DNA of 64,000 nt from Escherichia phage vB_EcoM_PTE-Eco05, in the sequence record PQ306573.1; one strand, written 5' to 3'. Both the position numbers and the translations under genes were made by a program. The notes beneath the pieces are model-generated. The model worked only from the letters and a program-made list of their open reading frames with translations. It ran no database searches and was not told the DNA's origin. Shown piece after piece: positions 13,262-64,000 of the stretch (the stretch's first letter is position 1; every line of letters starts with the position of its first letter).

Positions 13262-14247
13262 TGAAAACGATTGTTAAGGCTTACTTTGGTAGCCACCTTT
13301 ATGGAACGTCTACTCCTGAATCTGACATCGATTTTAAAGAAATTTATGTCCCTCATGCTCGTGATATCTTGACCGGTAACGTTAAAGAACACATGAGCAA
13401 GAACACGAATAACACATCTTCTAAGAACACAAAAGACGACGTGGACCATGAGTTGTATAGTCTCAAATATTTCTTTAAACTATCTGCGGATGGTGAAACC
13501 GTCGCATTAGATATGCTTCACACTCCACAAAGTCTAGTAGTTAAATCTGATTTGCCTGATGTATGGAAGTATATTCAAGATAACAGGTCTCGTTTCTATA
13601 CCACTAACATGAAATCTTATTTAGGGTATGTCCGTAAACAAGCTTCTAAATACGGTGTCAAGGGTTCTCGACTGGCTGTTCTTCGTCAAGCCCTTAAACG
13701 TTCTAATGAATGGGGACAATACTTTGATAATGGTGCAGTAATTCGTTTATCACATATGAAGAATGTTCTGCCTGTAGGTGAATTTGCTTCGTGGGTTGAA
13801 ACCGAAAACGAGAAAACAGGTAAGCAAACATTCTATAATCTGTTAGACCGTAAATTCCAAGACACGTTAACCAATAAAGAGTTCAATGCCATCCTGGTTA
13901 AACTGGAAGAGAACTATGGTGAACGTGCTCGTAAGGCGGAAGCCAACGAAGGTATTGACTGGAAAGCATTGAGTCATGCATGTCGTGGTGGACTTCAACT
14001 ATTGGAAATTTACAAAACCGGCGACCTGGTTTACCCACTTCAGGATGCTCCATTTATTCTCGATGTTAAGCTTGGTAAACATACGTTTAAAACTGTACAA
14101 GAATTCCTAGAAGATATCGTTGAACAAGTTGAACAAGCATCAGAACAAGCCGCTAAGAACGGTATGCAACAAAAAGTAGATATGAGTTTCTGGGATGACT
14201 TCCTTGAACAAGTCTACTTAGAAAACCACAATTCGTACTATAAATGA
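13258..14247 (+). CDS. Pol-beta-superfamily nucleotidyltransferase-like protein
   Basis: GSHLYGTSTPESDIDF fits the G[SG]x9-13DxD nucleotidyltransferase signature. Confidence 0.6.
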   Translation: MMKTIVKAYFGSHLYGTSTPESDIDFKEIYVPHARDILTGNVKEHMSKNTNNTSSKNTKDDVDHELYSLKYFFKLSADGETVALDMLHTPQSLVVKSDLPDVWKYIQDNRSRFYTTNMKSYLGYVRKQASKYGVKGSRLAVLRQALKRSNEWGQYFDNGAVIRLSHMKNVLPVGEFASWVETENEKTGKQTFYNLLDRKFQDTLTNKEFNAILVKLEENYGERARKAEANEGIDWKALSHACRGGLQLLEIYKTGDLVYPLQDAPFILDVKLGKHTFKTVQEFLEDIVEQVEQASEQAAKNGMQQKVDMSFWDDFLEQVYLENHNSYYK

Positions 14248-14642: not shown

Positions 14643-15623
14643 ATGTTCAACGTTCAAATCAAAAAAGGTATCTATCGTAATAACGAAATCTCTGGTTCTT
14701 ATGTCGCCACAAAGACATGGTTCCCGGCAAAGCTTAATCCTGAATGTTCCCACTTAGGTGACGGTAAAATTTTCGTTATGATTGATGGTTCTGAACGTGG
14801 AGTATGGGTCTTCAAATCAGACATCATAATGGAAGGAGTTGAGACATCACCAGTTGCAGTTGCTGAAAGCACTGAAGATATGAAAACTCGTATCAACAAA
14901 CGCTTTAAAGTAATGAACATGATGACGAATGGCATTATTGATGGCAAAATTCGTTCACTCATTATTTCAGGTGCAGCCGGTATTGGTAAGACGTATTCTC
15001 TGGATAAAGCACTTAATAGTGCTAATGATAACGGTTTCATCAAATACAAAAGCATTAATGGTAAAATCTCTGGTATTGGCCTTTACGAACAACTTTGGCT
15101 CAACCGTGATGCAGACAGCGTTCTCTTAATCGACGACGTTGATGTATTCTCAGATATGGACATCTTGAACCTTCTTAAAGCAGCATTAGATACCGGAGAT
15201 AAACGCAAAGTTTGTTGGAGCACTGCGTCATCTTATCTCGATGATAAGGGTATTGATAAAGAATTCGAGTTTGAAGGTACTATCGTTTTCATTACAAACG
15301 TTGATATCGATAAAGAGTTAGAACGCGGTTCTAAACTTGCTCCACACCTTCAAGCTTTAGTATCTCGTTCAGTGTATCTCGATCTTGGAGTACACTCTAA
15401 TGAAGAGATTATGGTTCGAGTTGAAGATGTAATATTATCTACTGACATGATGCAGAAACGTGGTCTGACGGATGCAGAAACGTATAAAGCATTGTCCTGG
15501 ATGAAGGCTAACGTATCTCGTCTTCGCAATGTATCATTACGTACGGCTCTTTATGTAGCAGATTTTATTTCAACTGATAAAGATGGTTGGGAGGAAATCT
15601 CTGAAGTAACTTTACTGAAATAA
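14643..15623 (+). CDS. AAA-type ATPase
   Basis: Walker A GAAGIGKT and Walker B VLLIDDVD. Confidence 0.65.
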   Translation: MFNVQIKKGIYRNNEISGSYVATKTWFPAKLNPECSHLGDGKIFVMIDGSERGVWVFKSDIIMEGVETSPVAVAESTEDMKTRINKRFKVMNMMTNGIIDGKIRSLIISGAAGIGKTYSLDKALNSANDNGFIKYKSINGKISGIGLYEQLWLNRDADSVLLIDDVDVFSDMDILNLLKAALDTGDKRKVCWSTASSYLDDKGIDKEFEFEGTIVFITNVDIDKELERGSKLAPHLQALVSRSVYLDLGVHSNEEIMVRVEDVILSTDMMQKRGLTDAETYKALSWMKANVSRLRNVSLRTALYVADFISTDKDGWEEISEVTLLK

Positions 15624-20819: not shown

Positions 20820-22633
20820 AAATTGAAAAAGAAATTGAAGGACTGATTCATAAAACTAATAAAGACCTTTTAAACGAGAATGCTAATAAAGATTCTCGTG
20901 TTTTTCCAACTCAACGGGACCTTATGGCTGGTATTGTGTCTAAGCACATTGCCAAAAATATGGTCCCGTCTTTTATTATGAATGCGCATGAAAGCGGAAT
21001 CATTCACATGCATGATATTGATTATTCTCCTGCTCTTCCATTTACTAATTGTTGTTTAGTAGATTTAAAAGGAATGCTTGAGAATGGATTTAAATTAGGC
21101 AATGCTCAAATTGAAACGCCTAAATCGATTGGTGTTGCTACTGCAATTATGGCACAAATTACTGCACAAGTTGCTTCACACCAGTATGGCGGAACTACAT
21201 TTGCGAATGTAGATAAAGTACTTTCTCCTTATGTTAAACGCACCTATGCAAAACATATTGAGGATGCAGAAAAATGGCAAATCGCTGATGCGTTGAATTA
21301 TGCTCAATCTAAAACAGAAAAAGACGTATACGATGCATTCCAAGCTTACGAATATGAAGTAAATACTCTCTTTAGTTCAAACGGGCAAACACCTTTTGTA
21401 ACAATTACATTTGGTACAGGAACTGACTGGACTGAACGAATGATTCAGAAAGCAATTCTGAAAAATCGTATTAAAGGTCTTGGTCGTGATGGGATAACTC
21501 CTATTTTTCCTAAACTTGTTATGTTTGTTGAAGAAGGTGTTAATCTTTATAAAGATGATCCGAACTATGATATTAAACAACTTGCGTTAGAATGTGCAAG
21601 CAAAAGAATGTATCCTGACATTATTTCGGTTAAGAATAATAAAGCTATTACCGGTTCTTCAGTTCCTGTTTCTCCGATGGGTTGTCGTAGTTTCTTGAGC
21701 GTATGGAAAGATTCGACTGGTAATGAAATTCTTGATGGACGTAATAATCTTGGTGTTGTAACACTGAATCTTCCTCGCATCGCGTTAGATTCTTATATTG
21801 GAACACAGTTCAATGAACAGAAATTTGTTGAGCTATTTAACGAACGAATGGACCTGTGTTTTGAAGCCTTGATGTGTAGAATTAGTTCTTTAAAGGGTGT
21901 TAAAGCTACTGTTGCTCCTATTCTTTACCAAGAAGGTGCATTCGGTGTTCGTCTTAAACCCGATGACGATATAATTGAGTTATTTAAAAACGGTAGAAGT
22001 TCAGTTTCCCTAGGATACATTGGTATTCACGAATTGAATATTCTTGTCGGTCGTGATATTGGACGAGAAATTTTGACTAAAATGAATGCTCATCTTAAAC
22101 AGTGGACTGAAAGAACTGGATTTGCTTTTAGTTTATATTCTACTCCTGCTGAAAACCTTTGTTATCGCTTCTGTAAACTTGATACAGAAAAATATGGAAG
22201 CGTAAAAGATGTTACCGATAAAGGTTGGTACACTAATAGTTTCCATGTTTCAGTAGAAGAAAATATTACTCCGTTTGAAAAGATTTCTCGTGAAGCACCA
22301 TATCATTTCATTGCGACCGGCGGTCACATTTCTTATGTTGAACTTCCTGATATGAAAAATAACTTAAAGGGCCTTGAGGCTGTATGGGATTATGCTGCAC
22401 AACATTTAGATTATTTTGGTGTTAACATGCCGGTAGATAAATGTTTTACATGTGGAAGTACCCATGAAATGTCTCCTACCGAAAACGGATTTGTTTGTTC
22501 AGTTTGTGGAGAAAGTGATCCTAAAAAGATGAACACAATAAGAAGAACATGCGGATATCTTGGAACTCCTAGCGTTGTTCCATGGAATTTAGGTAAAATG
22601 AAAGAAATGGTAAAACGAGTAAAACATGCATAG
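20816..22633 (+). CDS. nrdD: anaerobic ribonucleoside-triphosphate reductase
   Basis: 605 aa; C-terminal Zn-ribbon and glycyl-radical motif RRTCGYLG; contiguous ORF, no intron. Confidence 0.95.
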   Translation: MKIEKEIEGLIHKTNKDLLNENANKDSRVFPTQRDLMAGIVSKHIAKNMVPSFIMNAHESGIIHMHDIDYSPALPFTNCCLVDLKGMLENGFKLGNAQIETPKSIGVATAIMAQITAQVASHQYGGTTFANVDKVLSPYVKRTYAKHIEDAEKWQIADALNYAQSKTEKDVYDAFQAYEYEVNTLFSSNGQTPFVTITFGTGTDWTERMIQKAILKNRIKGLGRDGITPIFPKLVMFVEEGVNLYKDDPNYDIKQLALECASKRMYPDIISVKNNKAITGSSVPVSPMGCRSFLSVWKDSTGNEILDGRNNLGVVTLNLPRIALDSYIGTQFNEQKFVELFNERMDLCFEALMCRISSLKGVKATVAPILYQEGAFGVRLKPDDDIIELFKNGRSSVSLGYIGIHELNILVGRDIGREILTKMNAHLKQWTERTGFAFSLYSTPAENLCYRFCKLDTEKYGSVKDVTDKGWYTNSFHVSVEENITPFEKISREAPYHFIATGGHISYVELPDMKNNLKGLEAVWDYAAQHLDYFGVNMPVDKCFTCGSTHEMSPTENGFVCSVCGESDPKKMNTIRRTCGYLGTPSVVPWNLGKMKEMVKRVKHA

Positions 22634-23456
22634 GTATTATATAATTTATAAAATAACAAATATAATTAATTCAAAGGAATATATCGGTGCTATGCGCACC
22701 GATAACATAAATGATGGTTATATGGGGTCAGGAACATTGATTCGTGCCGCTTTATTAAAATATGGTAGAAAAAATTTTAATAAAGAAATTTTACATGTTT
22801 TTGATAATGAAAAACAAATGTATGATAAAGAAGCTGAACTTGTAACCGAAGAGTATTGTCTAAAAGAAAATACATATAATATTAAACCTGGTGGAAAAGG
22901 TGGAACTGCCTATGAACAGACACTTGAACATCGCCGTAAAAATAGTTTAGCAAATAAAGGTAAAAAGAGAACAGAAGAAACTAAAATAGCTATTTCACGT
23001 GCTTTAAAGAAATATAAACGTACGCCAGAGCATCAAGCAAATTTAAATAAAGCCGTAAGCATAGCTATGAAGCGAAAAGATGTTAGAAGTAAATTAGCTG
23101 GAGAGCGGTCTGAGAAAGATAAATTATCTATATCAAACGGTGTTAAAAAATATTACAATTCTTTGAGTGAAGAAGAACGCGAACTTCATCGCAAGCGAAT
23201 TATTGAAGGTAAAAAGAATTCTCCCATGTCATTGGAATCTAGACAAAAGCTTTCAAAAGCTTTAAAAGGGCTTCAAGTTGGTTCAAAAAATCCAATGTAT
23301 GGAAAAATTTCTCCAACTAGCAAAACCGTTTCAGTTGACGGTATTAAATATGATTCAATTAAAAAGTGCTCAAATGCCATAAAAGTTTCTAGACATCTTA
23401 TACTAAAACGCTGTAATTCTACTGATGAAGCTTGGAAAAATTGGATATTATTATGA
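22626..23456 (+). mobile_element. free-standing GIY-YIG homing endonuclease gene (seg/mob-like)
   Basis: YIIYKITNIINSKEYIG GIY-YIG motif; basic C-terminal repeats; overlaps nrdD stop and nrdG start. Confidence 0.85.
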
Positions 23457-26394: not shown

Positions 26395-26952
26395 ATGACT
26401 GAACAAAAACCTAAAAATAACTATGTGAATAATAAAGAGCTTCTCGCCGCTATAATCGAGTGGAAAAAGGAGCTCTTAAATAATAAAGACCCAAACAAAA
26501 TTATTCGTCAGAATGATACCATCGGTTTAGCAATTATGCTTATCGCCGAAGGCCTGTCCAAACGTTTCAACTTTTCAGGATATACCCAGTCTTGGAAGCA
26601 GGAGATGATTGCAGATGGGATTGAAGCCTCTATTAAGGGACTTCATAATTTCGACGAAACTAAGTATAATAACCCACATGCATACATAACTCGAGCTTGT
26701 TTTAATGCTTTTGTCCAACGTATCAAAAAAGAACGTAAGGAAGTTGCAAAGAAATATAGTTACTTCGTTCATAATGTCTACGACAGTCATGACGATGATA
26801 TGGTAGCGTTAGTAGATGAAACGTTTATTCAAGACATCTACGATAAAATGACGCATTATGAAGAATCCGCTTATAAAGCTCCTGGGGCTGAAAAGAAGGA
26901 AGTTGTTAGCGATTCGCCTAGTTTGGATTTTTTATATGAGGATGACAATTGA
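26395..26952 (+). CDS. 55: late-transcription sigma factor gp55
   Basis: [29 protein letters not shown]...[28 protein letters not shown] close to T4 gp55. Confidence 0.93.
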
Positions 26953-27151
26953 CATCTCTAACTACTTAGAAGAACCTTTTGACGAAGCAATCCCTTATTT
27001 GGTAAAACTGTTGGGTCGTGAATTTAAAATTAATTTTGACATCGACCCTTTGAACCCACATGACGTGTCATTTTCGATAAATGGGACTCCGGTTGAGTAT
27101 GAGTTCTGTATTGAAGAGGATGGACGTTTTTATTTTAATTTAATGAGATAA
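26942..27151 (+). CDS. hypothetical protein
   Basis: 69 aa; start uncertain. Confidence 0.4.
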
Positions 27152-27152
27152 T

Positions 27153-27476
27153 ATGACTACCGAGATTATTGAAAATAAAGAAGCAGAAGATGCAGTAGCT
27201 AAAATGCTACAAGAAATCCAAAAGAAAAATGAAGCTGAAGCACGTAAAAAATCCGAAAAGATTCTTAAAAAGAATCGTTTTGAACTAAACCGTCTTTATG
27301 CTCATGCTCAAGAAGCAGCAATTCAAAACAACTTCGAAGCTTACGAATATGCTATTAAGAAATCTCGGGATATTCTACGACAACCATACAATGACAAGTT
27401 AATTAAAATCCAATGGGTTACTACTCGTCAGGCTATTGAGGACATCATTAATGGCGCTAGTTCAAACAAAGTTTAA
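27153..27476 (+). CDS. hypothetical protein
   Basis: 107-aa ORF between 55 and 47. Confidence 0.5.
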   Translation: MTTEIIENKEAEDAVAKMLQEIQKKNEAEARKKSEKILKKNRFELNRLYAHAQEAAIQNNFEAYEYAIKKSRDILRQPYNDKLIKIQWVTTRQAIEDIINGASSNKV

Positions 27477-27696
27477 ACGTCTGAAGCTGAACGCAGGGTT
27501 CACCCTTAAATTGGGAGGTCCTCTTTGTGTTAAAATTTCTGAAAAGGAATATCACGACGGTTCTATTACAGAAATTTGTCCGCCTATTGTAAAGGCAGAC
27601 CCAAAACAACTCGTGTGGGTCGATTCATTTCAAGTTAAGAAATGGTGGAAACGATGAGAGAAATTGATTTAGGCATTTTCTGAGAGGTGCTTATGC

Positions 27697-27869
27697 ATGA
27701 CGAACATCCCGACTTCTGAAAATTTCGATAAAATCCGTAAAGGCAAAGCAGAAAGAATGAGACGTTTTAAAGAGTCTTATGATAAAGCTAAAGCCGAAGG
27801 AACTATTACATACAAGCCCATTCGATTTAAAAGTTCAAATGAGCCTCTGTACGGTGTACTATGTGGATA
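27697..27869 (+). CDS. small basic protein (57 aa, below ORF-track cutoff)
   Basis: ATG 27697, stop 27867-27869, immediately followed by a terminator hairpin. Confidence 0.35.
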
Positions 27870-27893
27870 GGAACTCTTCGGAGTTCCTTTTTT
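27870..27893 (+). terminator. rho-independent terminator (UUCG tetraloop)
   Basis: GGAACTC-TTCG-GAGTTCC-TTTTTT. Confidence 0.6.
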
Positions 27894-27916
27894 GCTTTAT
27901 AAACGGATGATAGAAT
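27890..27916 (+). promoter_or_regulatory. MotA-box middle promoter
   Basis: TTTGCTTTA, 11 nt, TAGAAT. Confidence 0.5.
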
Positions 27917-27939
27917 GAATTAACTAATGAGGAAATAAT

Positions 27940-28959
27940 ATGAAAATTTTGCACTTAGGCGACTTCCATATCGGAGTCAAACAAGACGACCCATGGGTTC
28001 AAGATATTCAACGTGATGGTATTCGTCAAGCAATTGAATACTCTAAGAAACACGGGATTAAAACTTGGATTCAGTATGGTGATTGGTTTGACGTCCGTAA
28101 AGCAATAACACATCGTACAATGGAATTCAATCGTGAAATCGTTGATATGATTTCTAAAGCAGGCATTCACGTTCATGTCACGATAGGAAACCATGACATG
28201 GCGTTTAAGAATACAATAACACCTAACACTGTTTCTGAATTGTTAACTCAATTTGAAAACTTTACTATTTACGAGCATCCGACTACTGTAGATTTTGACG
28301 GATGTCTGATTGATATCGTTCCATGGATGTGTGAAGAAAATACAGGTGAAATCTTAGAGCACATCAAGACTTCTTCCGCAGCGTATTGTGTTGGGCACTG
28401 GGAACTGAATGGCTTTTATTTCTATAAAGGAATGAAGTCTCATGGGCTTGAACCTGATTTCTTAAAGACCTATAAACAAGTCTGGTCCGGCCACTTCCAC
28501 ACAATCTCTGAAGCTGCTAACGTCAAATATATTGGGACACCATGGACCCTTACTGCAGGCGATGAGAACGACCCGCGCGGATTCTGGGTATTTGACACTG
28601 ATGTTGAACGTATGGAATTTATTCCTAATGAAACAACATGGCATCGACGAATCACTTATCCGTTTAAAGGCAAAATCAATTATTCTGATTATACTAATCT
28701 AGCCGTACGTGTTATAGTATCAGAAATTGATTCAGAGTTGACTAAGTTTGAATCTGAACTTGAAAAAGTAGTTCACTCTCTTCGTATGGTTTCTAAAGTT
28801 GATAACAGTGTTGAATCTGATGATGACCAGGAAATCGAGATTAAATCACTTAAAGATATCATTAAAGAATATATTGACGCGATTCCAGATATCTCAGACG
28901 AAGACAGAGAAGCGCTGGTCAAATATTCCAACGAACTTTATATTGAGGCAACACAATGA
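27940..28959 (+). CDS. 47: recombination endonuclease subunit (Mre11-like)
   Basis: 339 aa; phosphoesterase motifs LGDFHIG, GNHD. Confidence 0.93.
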   Translation: MKILHLGDFHIGVKQDDPWVQDIQRDGIRQAIEYSKKHGIKTWIQYGDWFDVRKAITHRTMEFNREIVDMISKAGIHVHVTIGNHDMAFKNTITPNTVSELLTQFENFTIYEHPTTVDFDGCLIDIVPWMCEENTGEILEHIKTSSAAYCVGHWELNGFYFYKGMKSHGLEPDFLKTYKQVWSGHFHTISEAANVKYIGTPWTLTAGDENDPRGFWVFDTDVERMEFIPNETTWHRRITYPFKGKINYSDYTNLAVRVIVSEIDSELTKFESELEKVVHSLRMVSKVDNSVESDDDQEIEIKSLKDIIKEYIDAIPDISDEDREALVKYSNELYIEATQ

Positions 28960-34580: not shown

Positions 34581-37292
34581 ATGAAAGAATTTTACTTAAC
34601 GGTTGAACAGATTGGTGATTCAATTTTTGAACGTTACATCGATTCTAATGGCCGTGAACGTACTCGTGAAGTAGAATATAAACCATCACTGTTTGCTCAT
34701 TGTCCAGAAAGTCAGGCTACGAAATATTTCGATATCTACGGTAAGCCGTGTACTCGTAAGTTGTTCGCTAATATGCGTGCTGCCTCCCAATGGATTAAAC
34801 GCATGGAAGATATCGGACTTGAAGCACTTGGCATGGACGATTTCAAATTGGCGTATTTGACTGACACTTATAACTATGAAATCAAATACGACCATACAAA
34901 AATTCGTGTGGCTAACTTCGACATCGAAGTAACATCTCCGGACGGGTTCCCTGAGCCGTCACAAGCAAAACATCCGATTGATGCTATCACCCATTATGAC
35001 TCAATTGACGACAGGTTCTACGTATTTGATCTATTGAATTCTCCATATGGTAATGTAGAAGAATGGTCTATTGAAATCGCTGCTAAGCTTCAAGAACAAG
35101 GCGGTGATGAAGTTCCATCCGAAATTATCGATAAAATCATTTATATGCCGTTCGATAACGAAAAAGAATTGTTGATGGAATATCTCAACTTCTGGCAACA
35201 GAAAACTCCTGTCATTTTGACTGGATGGAACGTTGAGTCATTTGATATTCCATATGTGTATAACCGAATCAAGAATATTTTTGGCGAATCTACTGCGAAA
35301 CGTTTATCACCACATCGTAAAACTCGTGTTAAAGTTATCGAAAACATGTATGGTTCTCGTGAAATCATTACATTGTTCGGTATCTCTGTTCTTGATTACA
35401 TTGACCTTTACAAAAAATTCTCTTTTACCAATCAACCGTCGTATTCTCTGGATTACATTTCAGAATTTGAATTGAACGTCGGTAAACTGAAATACGACGG
35501 CCCTATTTCTAAGCTTCGTGAAAGCAATCACCAACGATATATTTCTTATAACATTATCGACGTGTATCGTGTATTGCAAATTGATGCTAAGCGTCAGTTC
35601 ATCAACTTGAGTTTGGACATGGGTTATTATGCTAAGATACAGATTCAATCTGTGTTTAGCCCAATTAAAACATGGGATGCTATTATCTTTAATAGCCTTA
35701 AAGAGCAGAACAAGGTGATTCCACAAGGTCGTTCTCACCCGGTTCAACCTTATCCTGGCGCTTTTGTTAAGGAACCTATTCCAAATCGATACAAATATGT
35801 AATGAGTTTCGACCTTACATCTCTGTATCCAAGTATTATTCGCCAAGTGAATATTAGCCCGGAAACAATAGCAGGAACGTTTAAAGTAGCTCCACTGCAT
35901 GATTATATTAACGCAATCGCTGAACGTCCTTCAGATGTGTACAGTTGTTCTCCTAACGGCATGATGTATTATAAAGACCGTGATGGTGTAGTTCCAACTG
36001 AAATCACTAAGGTCTTTAATCAACGTAAAGAACATAAAGGTTACATGCTTGCAGCTCAACGTAATGGTGAAATAATTAAAGAGGCCTTACATAATCCTAA
36101 TCTTTCTGTTGACGAACCATTAGATGTTGATTATCGTTTCGACTTCAGTGATGAGATTAAAGAAAAGATTAAAAAGTTGTCTGCTAAATCTCTTAATGAA
36201 ATGTTGTTTAGAGCTCAACGTACTGAAGTTGCAGGTATGACTGCACAGATTAACCGTAAATTGCTCATCAACTCACTTTATGGTGCACTCGGCAACGTTT
36301 GGTTCCGTTATTACGATTTGCGTAATGCTACTGCAATCACAACATTTGGTCAAATGGCTTTACAGTGGATTGAACGTAAAGTTAATGAATATCTGAATGA
36401 AGTTTGTGGTACAGAAGGTGAAGCTTTCGTTCTTTATGGTGATACAGACTCTATTTACGTATCTGCTGATAAAATTATCGATAAGGTTGGTGAATCTAAA
36501 TTCCGTGATACCAACCATTGGGTAGACTTCTTAGATAAGTTTGCACGTGAACGTATGGAACCAGCTATTGATAGAGGTTTCCGTGAAATGTGTGAATACA
36601 TGAACAATAAACAACACTTAATGTTCATGGACCGAGAAGCTATCGCTGGGCCTCCGCTTGGTTCTAAAGGTATTGGCGGATTTTGGACTGGTAAGAAACG
36701 TTATGCATTAAACGTGTGGGATATGGAAGGTACTCGTTACGCTGAGCCTAAACTCAAAATCATGGGTCTAGAGACTCAGAAATCTTCGACTCCTAAAGCA
36801 GTACAGAAAGCTCTTAAAGAATGTATTCGTCGTATGCTTCAAGAAGGTGAAGAATCATTACAAGAATATTTTAAAGAGTTTGAAAAAGAATTCCGTCAAT
36901 TGAATTATATTAGCATCGCGTCGGTATCTTCTGCGAATAACATTGCTAAATACGACGTAGGTGGATTCCCGGGTCCTAAATGCCCGTTCCATATTCGTGG
37001 AATTCTGACGTATAACCGAGCTATCAAAGGTAATATTGATGCACCACAAGTTGTAGAAGGTGAAAAAGTATATGTTCTGCCTTTACGTGAAGGAAACCCA
37101 TTCGGTGATAAATGTATCGCATGGCCTTCTGGTACTGAAATCACAGATTTAATTAAAGACGATGTACTTCATTGGATGGACTACACTGTTCTCCTTGAGA
37201 AGACATTTATTAAACCGCTTGAAGGATTCACATCAGCAGCTAAACTCGATTACGAGAAGAAAGCATCTCTGTTCGATATGTTTGATTTTTGA
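34581..37292 (+). CDS. 43: DNA polymerase (family B)
   Basis: 903 aa; exonuclease and polymerase motifs (FDIE, YGDTDS, KILINSLYG) close to T4 gp43. Confidence 0.97.
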   Translation: MKEFYLTVEQIGDSIFERYIDSNGRERTREVEYKPSLFAHCPESQATKYFDIYGKPCTRKLFANMRAASQWIKRMEDIGLEALGMDDFKLAYLTDTYNYEIKYDHTKIRVANFDIEVTSPDGFPEPSQAKHPIDAITHYDSIDDRFYVFDLLNSPYGNVEEWSIEIAAKLQEQGGDEVPSEIIDKIIYMPFDNEKELLMEYLNFWQQKTPVILTGWNVESFDIPYVYNRIKNIFGESTAKRLSPHRKTRVKVIENMYGSREIITLFGISVLDYIDLYKKFSFTNQPSYSLDYISEFELNVGKLKYDGPISKLRESNHQRYISYNIIDVYRVLQIDAKRQFINLSLDMGYYAKIQIQSVFSPIKTWDAIIFNSLKEQNKVIPQGRSHPVQPYPGAFVKEPIPNRYKYVMSFDLTSLYPSIIRQVNISPETIAGTFKVAPLHDYINAIAERPSDVYSCSPNGMMYYKDRDGVVPTEITKVFNQRKEHKGYMLAAQRNGEIIKEALHNPNLSVDEPLDVDYRFDFSDEIKEKIKKLSAKSLNEMLFRAQRTEVAGMTAQINRKLLINSLYGALGNVWFRYYDLRNATAITTFGQMALQWIERKVNEYLNEVCGTEGEAFVLYGDTDSIYVSADKIIDKVGESKFRDTNHWVDFLDKFARERMEPAIDRGFREMCEYMNNKQHLMFMDREAIAGPPLGSKGIGGFWTGKKRYALNVWDMEGTRYAEPKLKIMGLETQKSSTPKAVQKALKECIRRMLQEGEESLQEYFKEFEKEFRQLNYISIASVSSANNIAKYDVGGFPGPKCPFHIRGILTYNRAIKGNIDAPQVVEGEKVYVLPLREGNPFGDKCIAWPSGTEITDLIKDDVLHWMDYTVLLEKTFIKPLEGFTSAAKLDYEKKASLFDMFDF

Positions 37293-37332: not shown

Positions 37333-37968
37333 ATGAAAACTACACCAATCACTATCGCTATTGACGCAATCGTAAAACAAGCTTCATCTCTTGCCACTAT
37401 GGCTAAAGTAATTAGTCAAAACCCTGCTCGGTATAATGCTATTCTTGAAACTCTTCGTCGCCCTGGACTGAGTAATTATGAAAGTCGTGTAATTATTACA
37501 GGTGTTGGTAAGAACGCTAATATCGCAACTAAAGCTTCCGAGACTTTTGCTTCACTAGGTATTCCTAGCATGTATTTGAACACTGGGCATTATTCTCATG
37601 GTGACGCAGGATTTATTGCACCTAATGATGTATTAGTTCACATCAGCCGTTCTGGTAAGACTGAAGAAATGATAGGTGTTGCTAAACATCTTCGTATGAT
37701 TCGTCCTCAGGTTAAACAGATTCTGTTACATTGTAACCCTGACATTCCACAAGAATACGAAGCTCTTTTTGATTATACGTTCTGTACTGGTATCGCGGTA
37801 GAAGTTGACGAGAACTCTTTAGCTCCGACAATGTCTACTACATTGTTGTTAGCGCTTATCGATACGTTCGCTATCAACCTTTCGTCTGAACGTGGATTTA
37901 CCTCTAATGATTTCCTTAAGTTCCATCCAGGCGGTGCACTAGGTGCCATGTTACGAGGCGAACAATGA
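37333..37968 (+). CDS. SIS-domain sugar-phosphate isomerase, KdsD/GutQ-like arabinose-5-phosphate isomerase
   Basis: ITGVGKNANIATKASETFASLGIPS...HGDAGFIAPNDVLVHISRSGKTEE...LAPTMSTTLLLALID...HPGGALG matches API SIS motifs; no CBS domains. Confidence 0.8.
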   Translation: MKTTPITIAIDAIVKQASSLATMAKVISQNPARYNAILETLRRPGLSNYESRVIITGVGKNANIATKASETFASLGIPSMYLNTGHYSHGDAGFIAPNDVLVHISRSGKTEEMIGVAKHLRMIRPQVKQILLHCNPDIPQEYEALFDYTFCTGIAVEVDENSLAPTMSTTLLLALIDTFAINLSSERGFTSNDFLKFHPGGALGAMLRGEQ

Positions 37969-38107
37969 AAGCAATATCAATAGGACTTTTACTATTGATG
38001 CTTGTCATGACTATCTACTGGAGCTTAACGGCTCCAGTAATGATTCCAACACTTGTAATTGGATGGATTATGATTGGACTACAAGCAAAGTATGAATGCT
38101 TTAACTA
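37965..38107 (+). CDS. small hydrophobic membrane peptide (47 aa)
   Basis: ATGA overlap with upstream stop; MKAISIGLLLLMLVMTIYW... Confidence 0.35.
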
Positions 38108-38149
38108 GAATAGTGTACAATACTCCTACTTACCAATGAGGACTTCAAC

Positions 38150-39835
38150 ATGAAAAAAGCTGTTATTCTTGGTGCTGGACTGGCAACTCGTTTGTATCCA
38201 ATAACGCATCATATTCCTAAGGTGCTTGTTAACTATAAACAAGACACTATTCTGAGCAATTTGTATACAATTTATTCTGACCTTGGCGCAGATGAAATTA
38301 TTGTAGTAGTTCATTCAAAATTTGCTGAAACTGTTCGAGCTTATTGTGAGCAAGAAGGGTTCAATGTGACTATTCGTACAGTTGATGAAGCGTATGGTTC
38401 TGCTTATGCTCTTGCTAAATTACACAAAGATTTAGACGGCCATAATGTAATTGTTAACTGGTGTGATATTATTCCCGATTTTGGTTCATGGTCTTGGAAT
38501 GTTAACGCAATCTATGTTAAGGGTGATGAATGTCGGTATAATTTCGATGGTGAAAATATCACTAATGTAGGTGAAACAGGCGGTAATGTTGTAGGAATTT
38601 ATCAGTTCAAAGACTGGGAATTCTATATGGGTTCTACCGATGAGGAAATTCATGAATACTGCAAAGGACGTGATTTCGTAGAATTCCTTTACGGCAGCAC
38701 ATTCAATAAATCAGAGCTTATGAATCTAATTGATTTAGGTGATATGCCTAAACTTGAAAAGGCCCATGAAGTTCGTGAACTGAACCGTAGTTTTAATGCA
38801 GTTGAAATTGGCGAAGAAACTGTAACTAAATTCGCATTAACCGAACAGGGTCGAGCTCTTCAGAAAGATGAGATTTCGTGGTATTTGAAAGTGAAATCAG
38901 ATTCAGTTCCTCAGTTAGTTTCTGTTAATGAAAATAACTTTGAAATGGAACGCATTAAAGGTAAGCCGGCATTTGAATATATTAAATCAAAATCAAGTCT
39001 TGCTCGTCCACAAATTATTGATGCAATTTTAGATGCACTGAAATTCAGCACAGACACTTATTTTGTAAGTCCTGAAACTGTTCGTCGTGATTTCACTAAA
39101 GAATTCTATACGAAAGTTATTGATCGTTGTGAAAGCATTCAACCATTGATTGATTCATTTGGTAAAATCACACATGTGAACTACACTAAGATTGGACGTC
39201 TGAAGCCAATGCTGAAACAAGCTTTAGAACACCTTATTCGTTATCATAACCGTTCTCAGGGACAGTACTCTGTTATTCATGGTGACCCGAACTTCAGTAA
39301 TACTATGATTACTGATAACGGCGAAGTCAAGTTTATCGACCCTCGTGGATATTTTGGCGAAACCAAGATTTACGGGCCAAAATTGTATGATGAAGCTAAA
39401 GTGCTTTACGCTGTTTCAGGTTATGATGAATTCAATGCTAATCCGACCTGGGGACAGTTTACTATTGATGAAACAACTTGTAATGTGACTATTAACATCA
39501 ATCCATTAGTTTACAAATATGGAAAGATGAGTTCGTTTAACGAGTATCATCATTTGGCAGTGGCAATTATCTGGATTGCATTAGGTGGTTATTTCAAGAA
39601 TAATCCACTTAAAGCGGTAGCCGCATATTATAAAGGTATGGAACTTCTGACTAAGCAATTACGTAATATGGGCCGTGTACTTCAAGACGGCTCTATTAGT
39701 TATGACGTAGCAGAACCTGTAACGGCTACTCTGATTACAAAAAATCCTGGTAAATGGGTACTAACTGATAAAGAAACTGGTGTTTCCTATCGTCCAATCG
39801 GTGGCGATATCACTCATCAATGGGAACGAATCTAA
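38150..39835 (+). CDS. bifunctional NDP-sugar pyrophosphorylase / sugar kinase fusion
   Basis: N-terminal AVILGAGLATRLYPITHHIPKVLV nucleotidyltransferase motif; C-terminal IHGDPNFSNTMI and FIDPRGYFG resemble APH/choline-kinase-fold motifs. Confidence 0.75.
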   Translation: MKKAVILGAGLATRLYPITHHIPKVLVNYKQDTILSNLYTIYSDLGADEIIVVVHSKFAETVRAYCEQEGFNVTIRTVDEAYGSAYALAKLHKDLDGHNVIVNWCDIIPDFGSWSWNVNAIYVKGDECRYNFDGENITNVGETGGNVVGIYQFKDWEFYMGSTDEEIHEYCKGRDFVEFLYGSTFNKSELMNLIDLGDMPKLEKAHEVRELNRSFNAVEIGEETVTKFALTEQGRALQKDEISWYLKVKSDSVPQLVSVNENNFEMERIKGKPAFEYIKSKSSLARPQIIDAILDALKFSTDTYFVSPETVRRDFTKEFYTKVIDRCESIQPLIDSFGKITHVNYTKIGRLKPMLKQALEHLIRYHNRSQGQYSVIHGDPNFSNTMITDNGEVKFIDPRGYFGETKIYGPKLYDEAKVLYAVSGYDEFNANPTWGQFTIDETTCNVTININPLVYKYGKMSSFNEYHHLAVAIIWIALGGYFKNNPLKAVAAYYKGMELLTKQLRNMGRVLQDGSISYDVAEPVTATLITKNPGKWVLTDKETGVSYRPIGGDITHQWERI

Positions 39836-40221
39836 TGCACCGTGTAGAAAACATGCTTAATCTTTGTTTTGATGTCGATGATTGTATAACAGAGTGGAAT
39901 AACAATCGTGATTACGTGAACTTCAAACCAGACGTCGAAATGGTGTCTGCCATTAATGCTCTGTATGATGCAGGGCATACCATAACGCTTTACACTGCTC
40001 GCGGTATGAAGTCAGTAGGTCCTGGTCGTATAGCAATTGACATTCTCCCAAGTCTGATTCAGAACTTGGCAAACATTGGCTTGAAGTACCATAATTTGCT
40101 AACACATAAACCAGTATATGATTGGATTATCGACGACAAAGCTATGCGTCCTGACGAATTCAAAGCTCTTATGAATAAAGGCGAATTCGAAACATTTAAA
40201 TCGTATAAACCGAATCTATAA
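39835..40221 (+). CDS. HAD-superfamily phosphatase-like protein
   Basis: FDVDDCIT near N-terminus (HAD motif I-like), later TARG and WIIDD. Confidence 0.55.
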   Translation: MHRVENMLNLCFDVDDCITEWNNNRDYVNFKPDVEMVSAINALYDAGHTITLYTARGMKSVGPGRIAIDILPSLIQNLANIGLKYHNLLTHKPVYDWIIDDKAMRPDEFKALMNKGEFETFKSYKPNL

Positions 40222-40269
40222 TAATTTAAGTAAGACCTGCAAAAAAACCATCGCATCAATTAACGCGAG

Positions 40270-41439
40270 ATGCAAAAAATGAATACTTTTAAAATCGGAA
40301 CGAATTTTGATTTAGCTCTTCTTGATAAAATCGTAGAGCTCAATAAAACTTATCCTAATAGCTTGATAAATGAAGTATACGGCTCTACAAGAGAAATGGC
40401 TTTTGTAGCAGCCAGACCTGATTTTAGGCTTCCTGACGTTGACAAAAAGATGTTAGAAGATTACGTTAAACGTTGTAACGAATTAGGTATTTGCTTTAAC
40501 TATACACTCAACACGATAAATCCTGGTTCAAAAAGAGAACTAGTTGAGTGGAAGAAGAAAGCTATTCAGGATTATGTTCAGTATCTTTGGTCAATAGGCG
40601 TATGGCGTATTACTATCGCTAACCCTGTTGTTATGGAAATTGTTCGTGAAGTCAATAAAGACATTGAGATTGAAGTTTCAACAATTCTACATGTCGATGC
40701 TGTAACTCAAATCAAATACTTGCATGACCAGTATAATATCAAAAAGGTCTGCTGTGGAATTCATAAGAACCGTTCAGTTTCTTTCCTGAAGCGTGCAGCA
40801 GAGTTTTGCAATAAGAACAATATAATATTTGAAGTTCTTGTAAATGAGTTCTGTTCTAATGCTGGTAAAGGGTATACAACACATTGTAGCTATCGTGACT
40901 CTTGCTATATTTTCCATAGTACTGATGTTACAGCTGATGATGCTAAATCCTTAAACGGATATCCTATGCAGCACTGTATTAAAGCTCGTGATACAGACCC
41001 ATTTAACTGGTTGAGAACTCGTTTTGTTCGTCCTCAAGATTTGAAACTTTATAATGATATTGGTATCACTCAATTCAAAGTTTCAGGACGTACAGGTAGC
41101 ACAGACTACATTTTGAAAGTTCTTGAAGCATACGCTTCTGAAAAGTTTGAAGGTAATTTGTTAGAACTGTGGAAGCCTTTAGAGACTATTTTCACTCTTG
41201 AAAACGAAACTGAGTTTTCACATACAGTAAATATTGAAACCTCTTTGTTAGATGGCTTTTTAGAAAAAAGGTGGTTCAGACATCCAGATTTCGATTGTGC
41301 TAATGAAATCTGCGGGACGACGTGTACATATTGTGAAAGATATTATAAACGTCAATTATCTAAAAACGGGTTAGCAGAAAACTCTATATCTATTATTGAT
41401 ATAACTAACTCTGATGACGCTTTGAGGTACCCGGAATGA
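40270..41439 (+). CDS. Cys-rich hypothetical protein of the sugar/modification cluster
   Basis: 389 aa; NEFCSNAGKGYTTHCSYRDSCY and C-terminal CANEICGTTCTYCERYY. Confidence 0.55.
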   Translation: MQKMNTFKIGTNFDLALLDKIVELNKTYPNSLINEVYGSTREMAFVAARPDFRLPDVDKKMLEDYVKRCNELGICFNYTLNTINPGSKRELVEWKKKAIQDYVQYLWSIGVWRITIANPVVMEIVREVNKDIEIEVSTILHVDAVTQIKYLHDQYNIKKVCCGIHKNRSVSFLKRAAEFCNKNNIIFEVLVNEFCSNAGKGYTTHCSYRDSCYIFHSTDVTADDAKSLNGYPMQHCIKARDTDPFNWLRTRFVRPQDLKLYNDIGITQFKVSGRTGSTDYILKVLEAYASEKFEGNLLELWKPLETIFTLENETEFSHTVNIETSLLDGFLEKRWFRHPDFDCANEICGTTCTYCERYYKRQLSKNGLAENSISIIDITNSDDALRYPE

Positions 41440-41675
41440 TTTCTAGAAAAACTTTTAACCACCAACTTAATGAAGAGATTTTGACTATGAAACTGAACAC
41501 TAACGAACAAATTCTTAAAAGGGCCCTGATGGGCCTGTTTGAAACTAAAGCGGCTAAAGTGATTAAAGAACCTGTTCAATTGGAATACTACGCTGATGCA
41601 TTTCTTCATAGTGTTCTTGGAAGTATCGGTGCTGAAGCTTTACGTTATATCAACATTGTCAAGAAATTCAAATAA
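41436..41675 (+). CDS. hypothetical protein
   Basis: 79-aa ORF. Confidence 0.45.
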   Translation: MISRKTFNHQLNEEILTMKLNTNEQILKRALMGLFETKAAKVIKEPVQLEYYADAFLHSVLGSIGAEALRYINIVKKFK

Positions 41676-41717
41676 GCTTTACGAATTGAGTATATAATAA
41701 ATTGTATTGAGGTAAAC

Positions 41718-42434
41718 ATGGGAAAACATAACACAATGAAATATATCAAAGCCGCAGATTTTCAAGCCGCATTTAAAGCAGTCAATCGTGAAATTTTAGA
41801 AAACCCGGAATTCGTAACTGATTCTCGTATTGGACGTTGTAATGAAATTGGGTCTATGACAGTAGTTGTTGACACTCCATCATCATTCAAAATGACCGAC
41901 CCACGTATTAACCGCATCTCTTATGAATATGCCGAAGACTTCTGGAAGTTTATGATTTCTGGTGGTACCAACGCAGAAGAAGCGTTTAAGGCATATCCTA
42001 ATGTCGCTAAATTTATTTCTAAACCAAAATCAGATGTTTTGCCGGCGAACTTCAACACTTTCTATGGTCCTCGCATTGCGGCCCAATTACCAGCTCTTCT
42101 AAAAGAACTTAAAGAGAAGCCTAACTCTCGAAGAGTTGTGTTCCAAATTCTAGAAAGTTCTGATCAGGCTTTGCTTGATTCAGACGAAACGCTTGAATAT
42201 CCATGTACTGACTCAGTGACTTATTATATCCGTGATGGTAAGCTTTATACCCACTGTCATATGCGTTCTCAGAACTGCGCTGTTGTTATGCAGTTGGATT
42301 TTTATCTCCAAGGAAAATTACTTCATTATATCGCTAACGAATGCGGTGTAGAAGTTGGTGATTATACTCATACCATGGTAAGTGCCCATGTGTTTGAACG
42401 TGATTTTGATTATGTTAAAGGATTCCTTGACTAA
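41718..42434 (+). CDS. thymidylate-synthase-fold pyrimidine hydroxymethylase (divergent dCMP hydroxymethylase-like)
   Basis: NSRRVVFQIL and YPCTDSVTYYIRDGKL...MRSQNCAVVMQLDFY align with TS/CH core motifs incl. catalytic Cys; same position as T4 gene 42. Confidence 0.65.
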   Translation: MGKHNTMKYIKAADFQAAFKAVNREILENPEFVTDSRIGRCNEIGSMTVVVDTPSSFKMTDPRINRISYEYAEDFWKFMISGGTNAEEAFKAYPNVAKFISKPKSDVLPANFNTFYGPRIAAQLPALLKELKEKPNSRRVVFQILESSDQALLDSDETLEYPCTDSVTYYIRDGKLYTHCHMRSQNCAVVMQLDFYLQGKLLHYIANECGVEVGDYTHTMVSAHVFERDFDYVKGFLD

Positions 42435-43333: not shown

Positions 43334-43334
43334 A

Positions 43335-43883
43335 ATGGCTAAAATTATTTTAGTAGATGGCCCAGATAATGCTGGTAAAACAACTTTCATTAATGACATA
43401 ATGGAAATTAGTGAAAGATATGTAAAGATTGATTTCCCTAAACGAACAGTTGATGGGCGTTTCGATGTTAAGTCTCGAAATGAAGTTGGCTGCTTCGAAA
43501 CGATGTTGAATTATTTAGACCCTACTAAGATTTATCTGTTAGACCGTGGATATATTAGTAACTGGGTTTATGGACGTATTCGACAAGATGCGGACTCGGT
43601 TCTTGACGTTTATGAACAGGATTATGTTCGTCTTTGCCAAAACCATGATGTGTTCACAATTATTTTAACACGTAACGAAATGACTGAAAGTTTTGAAGAC
43701 GACCTTATTACTTTGTCCTCATTCGGTTTTAATACAGTCATTTCACATTTTGAAGAGTTTGCAATTCATAACAAAATCCAAACGTATCAATTACTTAATC
43801 ATGATGGTGCTAACAAAGTTATAGGATTTAATGCAAGCGAACGTAATTATTTGATTACAGAAATTATCAAATGGGCTCGTTAA
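43335..43883 (+). CDS. P-loop nucleoside-monophosphate kinase-like protein
   Basis: ILVDGPDNAGKTT Walker A and LLDRGYIS (thymidylate-kinase DR-like). Confidence 0.6.
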   Translation: MAKIILVDGPDNAGKTTFINDIMEISERYVKIDFPKRTVDGRFDVKSRNEVGCFETMLNYLDPTKIYLLDRGYISNWVYGRIRQDADSVLDVYEQDYVRLCQNHDVFTIILTRNEMTESFEDDLITLSSFGFNTVISHFEEFAIHNKIQTYQLLNHDGANKVIGFNASERNYLITEIIKWAR

Positions 43884-48032: not shown

Positions 48033-48401
48033 ATGAAAAAATTAATCGCTTTAGCAATGGTATTTGGATTAACCGGATGTGGTGCTCATGGCTTTATCCC
48101 TAATAACGTTGGCCAACTGATTTACAATCCGAATGTTAAACAATATGAACAACCTAAAGTTGAAGTGGAAGACCCGGTTACTGTAGGTAATCGAATGATT
48201 CAAGCTGATGCTCATGCTCAACGTTATCGTGATTCTGATACTGTAGCATTGTCAAAAGAACAACGCGTTAAAGAACATTGTCTACAGGCTACTGAAATCG
48301 CATTCATTCGCTATGTTGAAACAACTGGTAAAGAGCCTACCCAGAAACAAATCGCGAATAACTACGTCCAGTGTATTGAACGTTTAAACAAATTTAATTA
48401 A
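48033..48401 (+). CDS. lipoprotein
   Basis: signal peptide with lipobox LTGC. Confidence 0.6.
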   Translation: MKKLIALAMVFGLTGCGAHGFIPNNVGQLIYNPNVKQYEQPKVEVEDPVTVGNRMIQADAHAQRYRDSDTVALSKEQRVKEHCLQATEIAFIRYVETTGKEPTQKQIANNYVQCIERLNKFN

Positions 48402-48462
48402 TTGGTTTACACCAAAGTTAAAATAAGATACTATAAACATAACAAATCAAGAGGAAATTAAC

Positions 48463-48711
48463 ATGGAATTATTCGTAGCTAGTTCAGTAGCAGTTTTAAT
48501 CGCAGGTATTGGTTCAATCATCATTTACATGTTGCCTTGGGTAATCGCACTTATTCGTGGCACAAAAAGCACAACAGCAATCTTCTTTGTATCTTTGCTC
48601 TTTAACTGGACGATGATTGGTTGGATTGGAACTTTAATTTGGTCTATCGTTGCCGAAAAGAAATCTGCTCAGCAGCCTCAACAAGTAATTATTATTCGCG
48701 AAAAAGAATAA
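48463..48711 (+). CDS. small two-helix membrane protein
   Basis: 82 aa, two hydrophobic segments. Confidence 0.5.
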   Translation: MELFVASSVAVLIAGIGSIIIYMLPWVIALIRGTKSTTAIFFVSLLFNWTMIGWIGTLIWSIVAEKKSAQQPQQVIIIREKE

Positions 48712-63366: not shown

Positions 63367-64000
63367 ATGAAAGTTATGTTTATCCCATCTCGCGCAGTCC
63401 CATTTAACCCAGAACGTGTACAAGGTGGTCTTGAAGCAGTACATTTAAATGTGTTGAAATATTTAGTTTCTATCGGTGCCGATATTGATTATATTGGTTT
63501 TGATAATGACACGTTTGGTGACTGGAAAGTTAATCATCATCCTGTTGGTCATCTGACTAAATTCAGTCTAGGTATGAGTTATACTATGGCTCGTAAGATT
63601 GTTGAACTAGCCGGCATTAATGAGTACGATTTCGTTGTTACAATGGAACCGACCAAACTAACCGTTCAGGCAATTAAAGACGCAGGTCTCTCTAAAGTTC
63701 ATAAGAATTTTATGGCAACACCATTTGAACCAGTATCTCGTGGCATTGTTCAAATTTGGGACCAGACTATTCAAATTCGTAAGAACGGTGGTAAGAGTTA
63801 TGCTCCTACTAAAGCCTTCCGTGAATTTGAACGCAAATATTGTTATATGACTTCAGGTCTGACTGACAAAATTGATTATGATTATTGGCGAGCAAATCCG
63901 TTGTTTGAAACCGAAGATTATCCGGTTATTTGTTTGAATGAGAAACCTGAAGTTCTTCCGGCGACTGATCTGATTATTAGTGCACAACGTTATGACACTA
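63367..64000 (+). CDS. 3'-truncated ORF, possibly glycosyltransferase-like (tentative)
   Basis: open frame to window end; N-terminus MKVMFIPSRAVPFNPERVQGGLEAVHLNVLKYL loosely resembles GT-B N-terminal domain; not rIIA-like. Confidence 0.4.
   Translation, partial: MKVMFIPSRAVPFNPERVQGGLEAVHLNVLKYLVSIGADIDYIGFDNDTFGDWKVNHHPVGHLTKFSLGMSYTMARKIVELAGINEYDFVVTMEPTKLTVQAIKDAGLSKVHKNFMATPFEPVSRGIVQIWDQTIQIRKNGGKSYAPTKAFREFERKYCYMTSGLTDKIDYDYWRANPLFETEDYPVICLNEKPEVLPATDLIISAQRYDT

Follow-up and report, generated by a model that had tools for sequence, protein, structure and literature searches.

The window analysed here, the whole stretch of 64,000 nucleotides from Escherichia phage vB_EcoM_PTE-Eco05 (PQ306573.1), covers about 38% (~64 of ~168 kb) of the phage. 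Judged by its sequence, it comes from an RB69-like T-even phage of the genus Mosigvirus. It is collinear with phage PhAPEC2 at 95-98% nucleotide identity, and many Mosigvirus genomes, including that of phage NP (98.1%), are 98% identical across 24 kb of it. RB69 itself was considered as its identity and rejected, since the two are about 98% and not 100% identical. The interval between genes 55 and 47, which in T4 houses the α-glucosyltransferase gene a-gt, contains or is bounded by the following features.

26395..26952, plus strand: gene 55 (late sigma factor), upstream boundary; 90.7% amino acid identity to T4 gp55 and 99.5% to RB69 gp55
26942..27151, plus strand: a-gt.5 homolog, 69 aa, DUF5491 (Pfam E = 5e-13); 100% to RB69p070, 47% to T4 a-gt.5
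27153..27476, plus strand: a-gt.4 homolog, 107 aa, DUF2654 (Pfam E = 1e-27); 100% to RB69p069, 58% to T4 a-gt.4
27451..27657, plus strand: a-gt.3 homolog, 68 aa, PHROG 1648 (E = 1.6e-34); 100% to RB69p068, 71% to T4 a-gt.3
27697..27870, plus strand: a-gt.2 homolog, 57 aa, DUF5486 (Pfam E = 4.5e-28); 94.7% to RB69p067, 76% to T4 a-gt.2
27869..27894, plus strand: intrinsic-terminator-like hairpin directly after a-gt.2, found by terminator scan; 8-bp stem and UUCG loop, followed by a T-run
27893..27916, plus strand: middle-promoter-like site matching the consensus, MotA box TGCTTTA-N11-TAGAAT (-10), 24 nt upstream of the gene 47 ATG
27940..28959, plus strand: gene 47 (SbcD-like nuclease subunit), downstream boundary; 99.7% to RB69 gp47

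From the gene 55 stop at 26952 to the gene 47 ATG at 27940, the interval spans about 988-989 nt, with the start of a-gt.5 overlapping the end of gene 55. An earlier sequence-only reading had recognized three small ORFs of 69, 107, and 57 aa as its only coding content. These three exist, but the conserved ORFs number four, as a-gt.3, which overlaps a-gt.4 by 26 nt, had been overlooked. A literature search on the functions of a-gt.2 to a-gt.5 returned no reports. At the position between a-gt.2 and gene 47 there is no a-gt; the 69 nt from the a-gt.2 stop to the gene 47 ATG are occupied by the hairpin, the MotA box, the -10 element, and a Shine-Dalgarno site. T4 47.1 used as a query gave no match in the window, and gene 47 is not preceded by this gene.

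The terminator and the middle promoter that the same reading had placed in the interval are both borne out as predicted elements. The hairpin has a folding energy of -13.9 kcal/mol (z = -3.9), aligns with the hairpin that follows a-gt.2 in T4, where the MotA box aligns as well, and is annotated as a terminator in PhAPEC2. A search for the combined MotA-box/-10 pattern gave 12 matches in the window for 2.1 expected. The two sites are predicted to act as terminator and promoter, respectively. A further terminator-like hairpin on the minus strand (27600-27578, inside a-gt.3) was taken as a chance occurrence, given that the scan returned 2 sites for 1.0 expected.

The arrangement is shared with RB69. 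In the corresponding RB69 interval (RB69p071 to RB69p066; NC_004928 39991-40979), the gene order 55, a-gt.5, a-gt.4, a-gt.3, a-gt.2, 47 is the same, the 989 aligned nt show 98.1% identity and contain no indels, and each of the four small ORFs has 95-100% identity to its counterpart among RB69p067-p070; the differences are scattered substitutions, none of them structural. The spacer between a-gt.2 and gene 47 is identical in phage JS09. By these alignments, the interval has the standard Mosigvirus layout, i.e., a-gt.5, a-gt.4, a-gt.3, and a-gt.2, one module of terminator and middle promoter, and gene 47.

The T4 interval (NC_000866 36447-39600) is also flanked by genes 55 and 47 and carries a-gt.5 to a-gt.2 in equal order and orientation, with 47-76% amino acid identity for the small genes, and a-gt.2 is followed by a hairpin and MotA-box module as in the window. 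Between a-gt.2 and gene 47, however, T4 has mobB (an HNH homing endonuclease gene), a-gt, and 47.1, none of which is present in the window. The T4 a-gt product is 400 aa long, in agreement with the size and position given in the sequence-only reading. T4 also has a second hairpin and MotA-box module, located after a-gt, whereas the window has one.

In order to search for T4-type glucosyltransferases, tblastn matches were accepted up to E = 10 and the phmmer filters were switched off, using as targets the ORFs in all six frames of both the window and PhAPEC2. Because the window is only part of the phage, absence at the whole-genome scale was assessed on this relative, whose complete genome comprises 167 kb. 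T4 a-gt gave best tblastn E values of 1.3 anywhere in the window and 0.076 in whole PhAPEC2, T4 b-gt gave 6.3 and 4.6, and RB27 ba-gt (the T2/T6-type β-glucosyl-HMC-α-glucosyltransferase) gave 3.4 and 0.82, respectively. Across these ORF sets, the best E values were 0.93 for an a-gt profile HMM built from three sequences (T4, RB27, and KpV477) and 1.5 for b-gt with phmmer. The best score that any method gave for these three genes was thus E = 0.076, for T4 a-gt in PhAPEC2, and the window contains no homolog of them. In a phage collection, the a-gt matches fell into identity bands fitting Tequatrovirus (at least 90%) and Jiaodavirus-type phages of Klebsiella and Raoultella (~66%), with no Mosigvirus record among the 40 matches listed.

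These results agree with the claims that a-gt is missing between genes 55 and 47 and that b-gt is missing as well. We considered whether an enzyme of the a-gt/b-gt type could be encoded outside the 64-kb window, such that the DNA is glucosylated after all. T-even genomes are mosaic, the window covers only ~38% of the genome, and mixtures of the two systems are conceivable, as a few Tequatrovirus-like phages reportedly possess arabinosylation clusters (PMC13326640). Nevertheless, the window includes the two canonical slots (55-47 and 42-uvsX), and neither of them contains a-gt or b-gt; the tblastn and HMM searches were without a match in the complete genome of PhAPEC2; the a-gt matches listed include no Mosigvirus; and RB69 was described as having no a-gt, b-gt, or ba-gt homolog and as containing arabinose in its DNA (PMC6024577). 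A glucosyltransferase elsewhere in this genome is therefore extremely unlikely.

The window does encode another modification system. Homologs of RB69 gp45-gp55 and gp3 are present with 92-99.5% identity and matching domain assignments, most of them in an RB69-type arabinosylation cluster at 37333-43883. The relevant genes are as follows.

37333..37968, plus strand: arabinose-5-phosphate isomerase homolog (RB69 gp55); Pfam SIS, NCBIfam KpsF/GutQ and KdsD; 96.7% to RB69p055
38150..39835, plus strand: fused sugar-1-phosphate nucleotidyltransferase and kinase-like protein (RB69 gp52:53); Pfam NTP_transferase; 99% to RB69p053/p052
39835..40221, plus strand: small phosphatase-like protein (RB69 gp51); NCBIfam capsule biosynthesis phosphatase (E = 4e-13); 99.2% to RB69p051
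40270..41439, plus strand: Peptidase_U32-family protein (RB69 gp50); Pfam E = 7e-11; 99.5% to RB69p050
41718..42434, plus strand: thymidylate-synthase homolog, presumed 5-hydroxy-dCMP synthase (RB69 gp48); 98.7% to RB69p048 over 238 aa
42434..43333, plus strand: GT-B-fold glycosyltransferase, 299 aa (RB69 gp46:47, proposed first arabinosyltransferase); occupies the T4 b-gt slot
43335..43883, plus strand: thymidylate-kinase-like nucleotide kinase (RB69 gp45); PHROG 761; 98.9% to RB69p045
63367..64000, plus strand: RB69 gp3 (ORF003c) homolog, proposed second arabinosyltransferase, first 211 codons; 98.1% to RB69p003 residues 1-211

The genes expected to supply NDP-arabinose, for the isomerase, the phosphatase, and the kinase/nucleotidyltransferase, are all present (37333-40221; 97-99% to RB69 gp55, gp51, and gp52:53). 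The C-terminal half of the fused protein has weak Pfam matches to kinase families. A gp56 dCTPase is encoded at 51752-52270. The U32-like protein had no match when its sequence was compared with the PDB.

The slot downstream of the gene 42 homolog, where T4 has b-gt, holds a different GT-B transferase. The 299-aa product has the two Rossmann-like domains and the structural similarity to solved GT-B enzymes that define this fold. It was considered as a sequence relative of T4 a-gt and rejected (hhalign probability of 0.2%), the fold alone being common to the two. The gp3 homolog matches positions 1-211 of 366 of PHROG 8302, the gene being cut by the window end. Neither this fragment nor the 299-aa protein is assigned to a Pfam or NCBIfam family, and their PHROGs are families of "unknown function". 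A search for GT-B homologs, which had been suggested as a check, is thus negative at the level of the a-gt/b-gt families in the window and PhAPEC2, but positive at the level of the fold, given the transferases at 42434-43333 and from 63367 to the window end.

The chemistry of this pathway has been examined in related phages. RB69 gp48 makes 5hodCMP, and RB69 virion DNA contains mono- and di-arabinosyl-5hoC (PMC13326640); that the gp48 product is 5-hydroxy-dC rather than 5hm-dC was established by LC-MS, co-injection of a standard, and 18-O2 labelling (PMC13326640). In the DNA of Mosigvirus NP, 5-ara-dC and 5-ara-ara-dC occur at a ratio of 1:4 (PMC13390438). By analogy with RB69 and NP, the DNA of the phage studied here would carry arabinosyl-5-hydroxycytosine. 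In the proposed pathway, the divergent thymidylate-synthase homolog (41718-42434) would convert dCMP to 5-hydroxy-dCMP, the neighboring genes at 37333-40221 would build the NDP-arabinose donor, and the two GT-B-fold transferases (42434-43333 and the gp3 homolog) would add the first and then the second arabinose to the 5-hydroxyl group. The assignment of the two transferases to the first and the second arabinose is presumptive. Single glycosyltransferases were reportedly inactive in the work of Lee et al., and in vitro reconstitution of the first arabinosylation step is not known for any phage.

The RB69 modification was first read as ara-hmC by Thomas et al. in 2018 (PMC6024577), in which case the T4 hmC pathway would have been kept and the sugar alone changed. 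The presence of a thymidylate-synthase-family gene at the gene 42 position of the window fits that interpretation, but its product shares only 24.8% identity with T4 gp42 versus 98.7% with RB69 gp48, whose product is not 5hm-dC, and two papers from 2026 call the hmC assignment erroneous (PMC13326640, PMC13390438). We consider ara-hmC very unlikely; the glycosylated base is most likely 5-hydroxycytosine. For this reason, a comparison of glucosyl-hmC-dependent with hmC-dependent restriction enzymes, as had been suggested for this phage, is framed around the wrong base.

Compared with the T-even glucosyl-hmC system (gp42 with a-gt, b-gt, or ba-gt), the system in the window similarly uses a thymidylate-synthase-family enzyme leading to C5-oxygenated dCMP, a gp56 dCTPase, and sugar transfer by GT-B-fold enzymes, and the gene for the proposed first transferase immediately follows the thymidylate-synthase homolog, a placement like that of b-gt in T4. 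It differs in the predicted product, 5-hydroxycytosine with 1-2 arabinose units instead of hmC with glucose, in transferases without detectable sequence similarity to a-gt, and in that the phage must encode its own sugar-nucleotide pathway. No difference was detected from the Mosigvirus arabinosyl-5-hydroxycytosine system (RB69 gp3 and gp45-gp55; NP) over the part in the window, which includes residues 1-211 of the 366 of gp3. The lack of a-gt in the 55-47 interval is best explained by RB69-like phages arabinosylating 5-hydroxycytosine through other genes, which are also found in the window. The claim that the phage does not glucosylate its DNA in the T4 manner is supported by the searches, in which neither the window nor PhAPEC2 had a homolog of a-gt, b-gt, or ba-gt, by the set of RB69-type arabinosylation genes (97-99% amino acid identity), and by the chemistry published for RB69 and NP.

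The interval could also be viewed as a scar left when a T4-like ancestor recently lost a-gt by deletion, which would make the phage a glucosylation-defective derivative with no other modification system. T4 and the window have in common a-gt.2 to a-gt.5 and the flanking hairpin/MotA-box sequence, and the single module at 27869-27916 looks like a fusion of the two T4 modules, upstream and downstream of a-gt: its left half matches the former, and its right half, ACGGATGATAGAAT, matches ACGGAGTTTGATATAAT in the latter. On the other hand, every Mosigvirus record examined (RB69, JS09, PhAPEC2, and mar005P1) has this layout without a-gt, which is found in Dhakavirus and Krischvirus too, the alternative pathway is complete in the genome (for gp3, as far as residues 1-211), and gene 42 is replaced by a 25%-identical paralog. 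A recent deletion is hence highly improbable. The presence or absence of a-gt is an old difference between lineages, and these data are compatible with either direction, gain in T4 or loss here.

In T4, RB27, and KpV477, such modules flank a-gt, in T4 one after a-gt.2 and the second after a-gt, whereas a single copy is found in the window, JS09, and AnYang. Tentatively, a-gt may be a cassette that enters or leaves the genome when two copies of the unit "UUCG hairpin, T-run, MotA box, and -10" recombine, with 27869-27916 representing the empty site, but we regard this as somewhat less probable than not. The modules resemble PeSL cassettes (Arbiol 2010, PMC2839356; Comeau 2014, PMC4122927) in that a predicted stem-loop terminator is fused to a predicted promoter and has a copy at either border of a variable gene, here a-gt, occurring once where this gene is absent. 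PeSLs were defined with early promoters, whereas the promoter of the window module belongs, by its consensus match, to the MotA-dependent middle class. If correct, this model would widen PeSL shuffling beyond early-promoter cassettes to those with middle promoters, and would include a DNA-modification gene by which barriers to genetic exchange among T-even phages are set.

Overall, we are highly confident that this phage is a Mosigvirus that lacks the T4 insert (mobB, a-gt, and 47.1), makes no glucosyl-hmC, and likely modifies its DNA to arabinosyl-5-hydroxycytosine by the RB69-type pathway. The literature has covered the lack of a-gt and b-gt in RB69-like phages, the pathway that replaces them, and its chemistry since 2018, with refinements in 2026, so the biology itself is not new. 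The type of sugar on phage cytosines decides by which restriction enzymes, CRISPR nucleases, DNA glycosylases, and type IV systems a phage can be attacked, and also whether genes are exchanged with relatives of T4. Annotation, selection in phage therapy, and cloning and sequencing therefore benefit from recognizing that this phage belongs with the arabinosyl-5-hydroxycytosine phages and not with the glucosyl-hmC phages.

The interval between the gene 55 stop codon (26952) and the gene 47 ATG (27940) holds four small ORFs, each with a T4 homologue.

Features of the gene 55-47 region
26395-26952, + strand: gene 55, late sigma factor
26942-27151: a-gt.5, 69 aa, DUF5491, 47% identity to T4
27153-27476: a-gt.4, 107 aa, DUF2654, 58% identity to T4
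27451-27657: a-gt.3, 68 aa, PHROG 1648, 71% identity to T4
27697-27870: a-gt.2, 57 aa, DUF5486, 76% identity to T4
27869-27894: predicted terminator (terminator scan), 8-bp hairpin with UUCG loop and T-run, right after the a-gt.2 stop codon
27893-27916: middle-promoter-like sequence fitting the T4 consensus (TGCTTTA, 11-nt spacer, TAGAAT), running into the hairpin
27940-28959, + strand: gene 47, SbcD-like nuclease subunit

The sequence-only reading had counted three ORFs here (69, 107 and 57 aa); these are present, but it overlooked a-gt.3, whose start overlaps the end of a-gt.4. The terminator and middle promoter that it placed in the interval are found at 27869-27916 as consensus matches only: the hairpin has a folding energy of -13.9 kcal/mol (z = -3.9), and 12 matches to the promoter pattern were counted in the window, where chance alone would give 2.1. 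The gene order in T4 is 55, a-gt.5, a-gt.4, a-gt.3, a-gt.2, mobB, a-gt (400 aa), 47.1, 47. As mobB, a-gt and 47.1 were not detected in the window by tblastn, the claim that the alpha-glucosyltransferase gene found here in T4 is absent from this interval holds.

At an identity of 95% or higher, over 140 phage records match the interval with its flanking sequence; all are RB69-like and belong to the genus Mosigvirus. Compared with RB69, the 989-nt interval shows 98.1% identity with 0 gaps, and the four ORFs share 95-100% identity with RB69p067-RB69p070 (annotated a-gt.2 to a-gt.5). Mosigvirus NP is 98.1% identical across 24 kb, and the window is collinear over its full length with positions 2987-67810 of PhAPEC2 (95-98% identity), the Mosigvirus used as a whole-genome stand-in in our searches.

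Homologues of a-gt, b-gt (beta-glucosyltransferase) and ba-gt (the T2/T6-type enzyme) were not found in the window or in PhAPEC2. With tblastn, T4 a-gt gave a best E of 1.3 in the window and 0.076 in the assembled 167,318-bp PhAPEC2 genome; T4 b-gt gave 6.3 and 4.6, respectively, bearing out its presumed absence from the window; and RB27 ba-gt gave 0.82 over both. Searches of 2,102 six-frame ORFs of the window and PhAPEC2 with filters off gave a best E of 0.93 for a profile HMM built from 3 a-gt sequences and 1.5 for b-gt with phmmer. Among the matches listed for a phage collection, a-gt homologues fell into identity bands of Tequatrovirus (at least 90%) and Klebsiella/Raoultella phages (~66%), b-gt homologues came from T4 proper and several other genera, and no Mosigvirus record appeared for either. 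These negatives agree with the published absence of a-gt, b-gt and ba-gt homologues from RB69 (PMC6024577; PMC13326640). GT-B-fold transferases nevertheless occur elsewhere in the window.

Between gene 43 (34581-37292) and uvsX (43982-45154), where T4 carries imm.1, imm, 42, b-gt and segA, lies the RB69 gp55-gp45 cluster, at 92-99.5% amino acid identity.

Cluster genes and the RB69 gp3 homologue
37333-37968: arabinose-5-phosphate isomerase (domain assignment)
38150-39835: fused nucleotidyltransferase/kinase (domain assignment)
39835-40221: small phosphatase (domain assignment)
40270-41439, + strand: Peptidase_U32-family protein (domain assignment)
41718-42434, + strand: thymidylate-synthase homologue
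42434-43333, + strand: 299-aa GT-B-fold transferase ORF, no Pfam or NCBIfam family
43335-43883: kinase
63367-64000: homologue of RB69 gp3 (ORF003c), a proposed second arabinosyltransferase; first 211 codons, cut by the window end

The thymidylate-synthase homologue is 98.7% identical to RB69 gp48 and only 24.8% identical to T4 gp42, in contrast to the sigma factor gp55, which shares 91% identity with T4 gp55. We attribute this low identity to its being an RB69-type 5-hydroxy-dCMP synthase, not a dCMP hydroxymethylase; RB69 gp48 was shown experimentally to produce 5-hydroxy-dCMP with O2 and flavin (PMC13326640). The transferase gene lies directly downstream, exactly in the position of b-gt relative to T4 gene 42, so b-gt has been replaced and is not simply missing. 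This transferase is a single intact ORF in the window, whereas the RB69 reference annotation splits it into p046 and p047, a split ascribed to sequencing error by a 2026 paper. Homologues of imm and imm.1 (48039-48708, + strand), located between genes 42 and 43 in T4, adjoin dmd and sp, indicating that the 42-43 region was rebuilt around the arabinosylation cluster.

The Peptidase_U32-family ORF, a homologue of RB69 gp50, lies two genes ahead of the presumed 5-hydroxy-dCMP synthase gene. Its product contains 13 cysteines, some of them in a CX4CX3CX2C cluster at the C terminus. In bacteria, U32 proteins (RlhA, TrhP, UbiU/UbiV) perform O2-independent hydroxylations, including that yielding 5-hydroxycytidine in rRNA (PMC5727448, PMC6599085, PMC6747719), while the published phage 5hoC synthase requires O2. 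A gp50-type U32 protein could allow 5hoC to be made anaerobically. In the RB69 paper, gp50 is given just the label "sugar or heterocycle reductase", with mention of neither U32 nor prephenate, and our literature search found no paper tying U32 to 5-hydroxycytosine and phage.

Separately, a 276-aa ORF (22626-23456, + strand) situated between nrdD and nrdG resembles a seg-type homing endonuclease: its N-terminal portion shares 47% identity with the initial ~120 residues of SegA, a GIY-YIG homing endonuclease of T4. PhAPEC2 lacks this ORF, the stretch being unmatched there, and T4 has a different homing endonuclease, the HNH mobC, at the nrdD/nrdG junction.

The layout without a-gt recurs in JS09 (Mosigvirus), in AnYang (Dhakavirus) and, in a shorter form, in GEC-3S (Krischvirus). 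In the AnYang record only a-gt.5 and a-gt.4 are annotated at this position, and by eye the 474 nt before gene 47 resemble unannotated a-gt.3/a-gt.2-like sequence. In contrast, KpV477 (Klebsiella Jiaodavirus) carries a-gt at the same locus, without mobB or 47.1. Possession of a-gt here is thus a Tequatrovirus/Jiaodavirus property, not a general T-even one. In T4, RB27 and KpV477, a-gt is flanked on both sides by similar modules (UUCG hairpin, T-run, MotA box and -10 element), whereas phages lacking a-gt have one.

Composite modules (local coordinates for the T4, KpV477 and RB27 stretches)
Window: 27869-27916
T4 (L003): 586-624 and 2681-2731
KpV477 (L010): 3165-3233 and 4431-4500
RB27 (L014): 13911-13949 and 15153-15218

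The left part of the window module resembles the T4 upstream module and its right part the downstream one. This fits gain or loss of an a-gt cassette, which may have occurred through recombination between composite terminator-promoter elements. Cassette shuffling by such elements was proposed for PeSLs (PMC2839356, PMC4122927); the modules flanking a-gt are similar, but their promoter is of the middle type.

RB69 DNA contains arabinose (PMC6024577); according to a 2026 revision of the structure, the modified base is mono- and di-arabinosyl-5-hydroxycytosine, the sugar being joined directly by an ether link (PMC13326640). In NP DNA, 5-ara-dC and 5-ara-ara-dC are present at 1:4, and the previous assignment as hmC was termed erroneous (PMC13390438). 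The modified base in this phage is very probably 5-hydroxycytosine and not hmC, so comparing glucosyl-hmC- with hmC-dependent restriction enzymes would not be the informative test. The earlier suggestion that this phage does not glucosylate its DNA in the T4 manner is supported by the lack of a-gt, b-gt and ba-gt homologues in the window and PhAPEC2, the RB69-type cluster and the literature, in which the absence of T4-style glucosylation is already explained.
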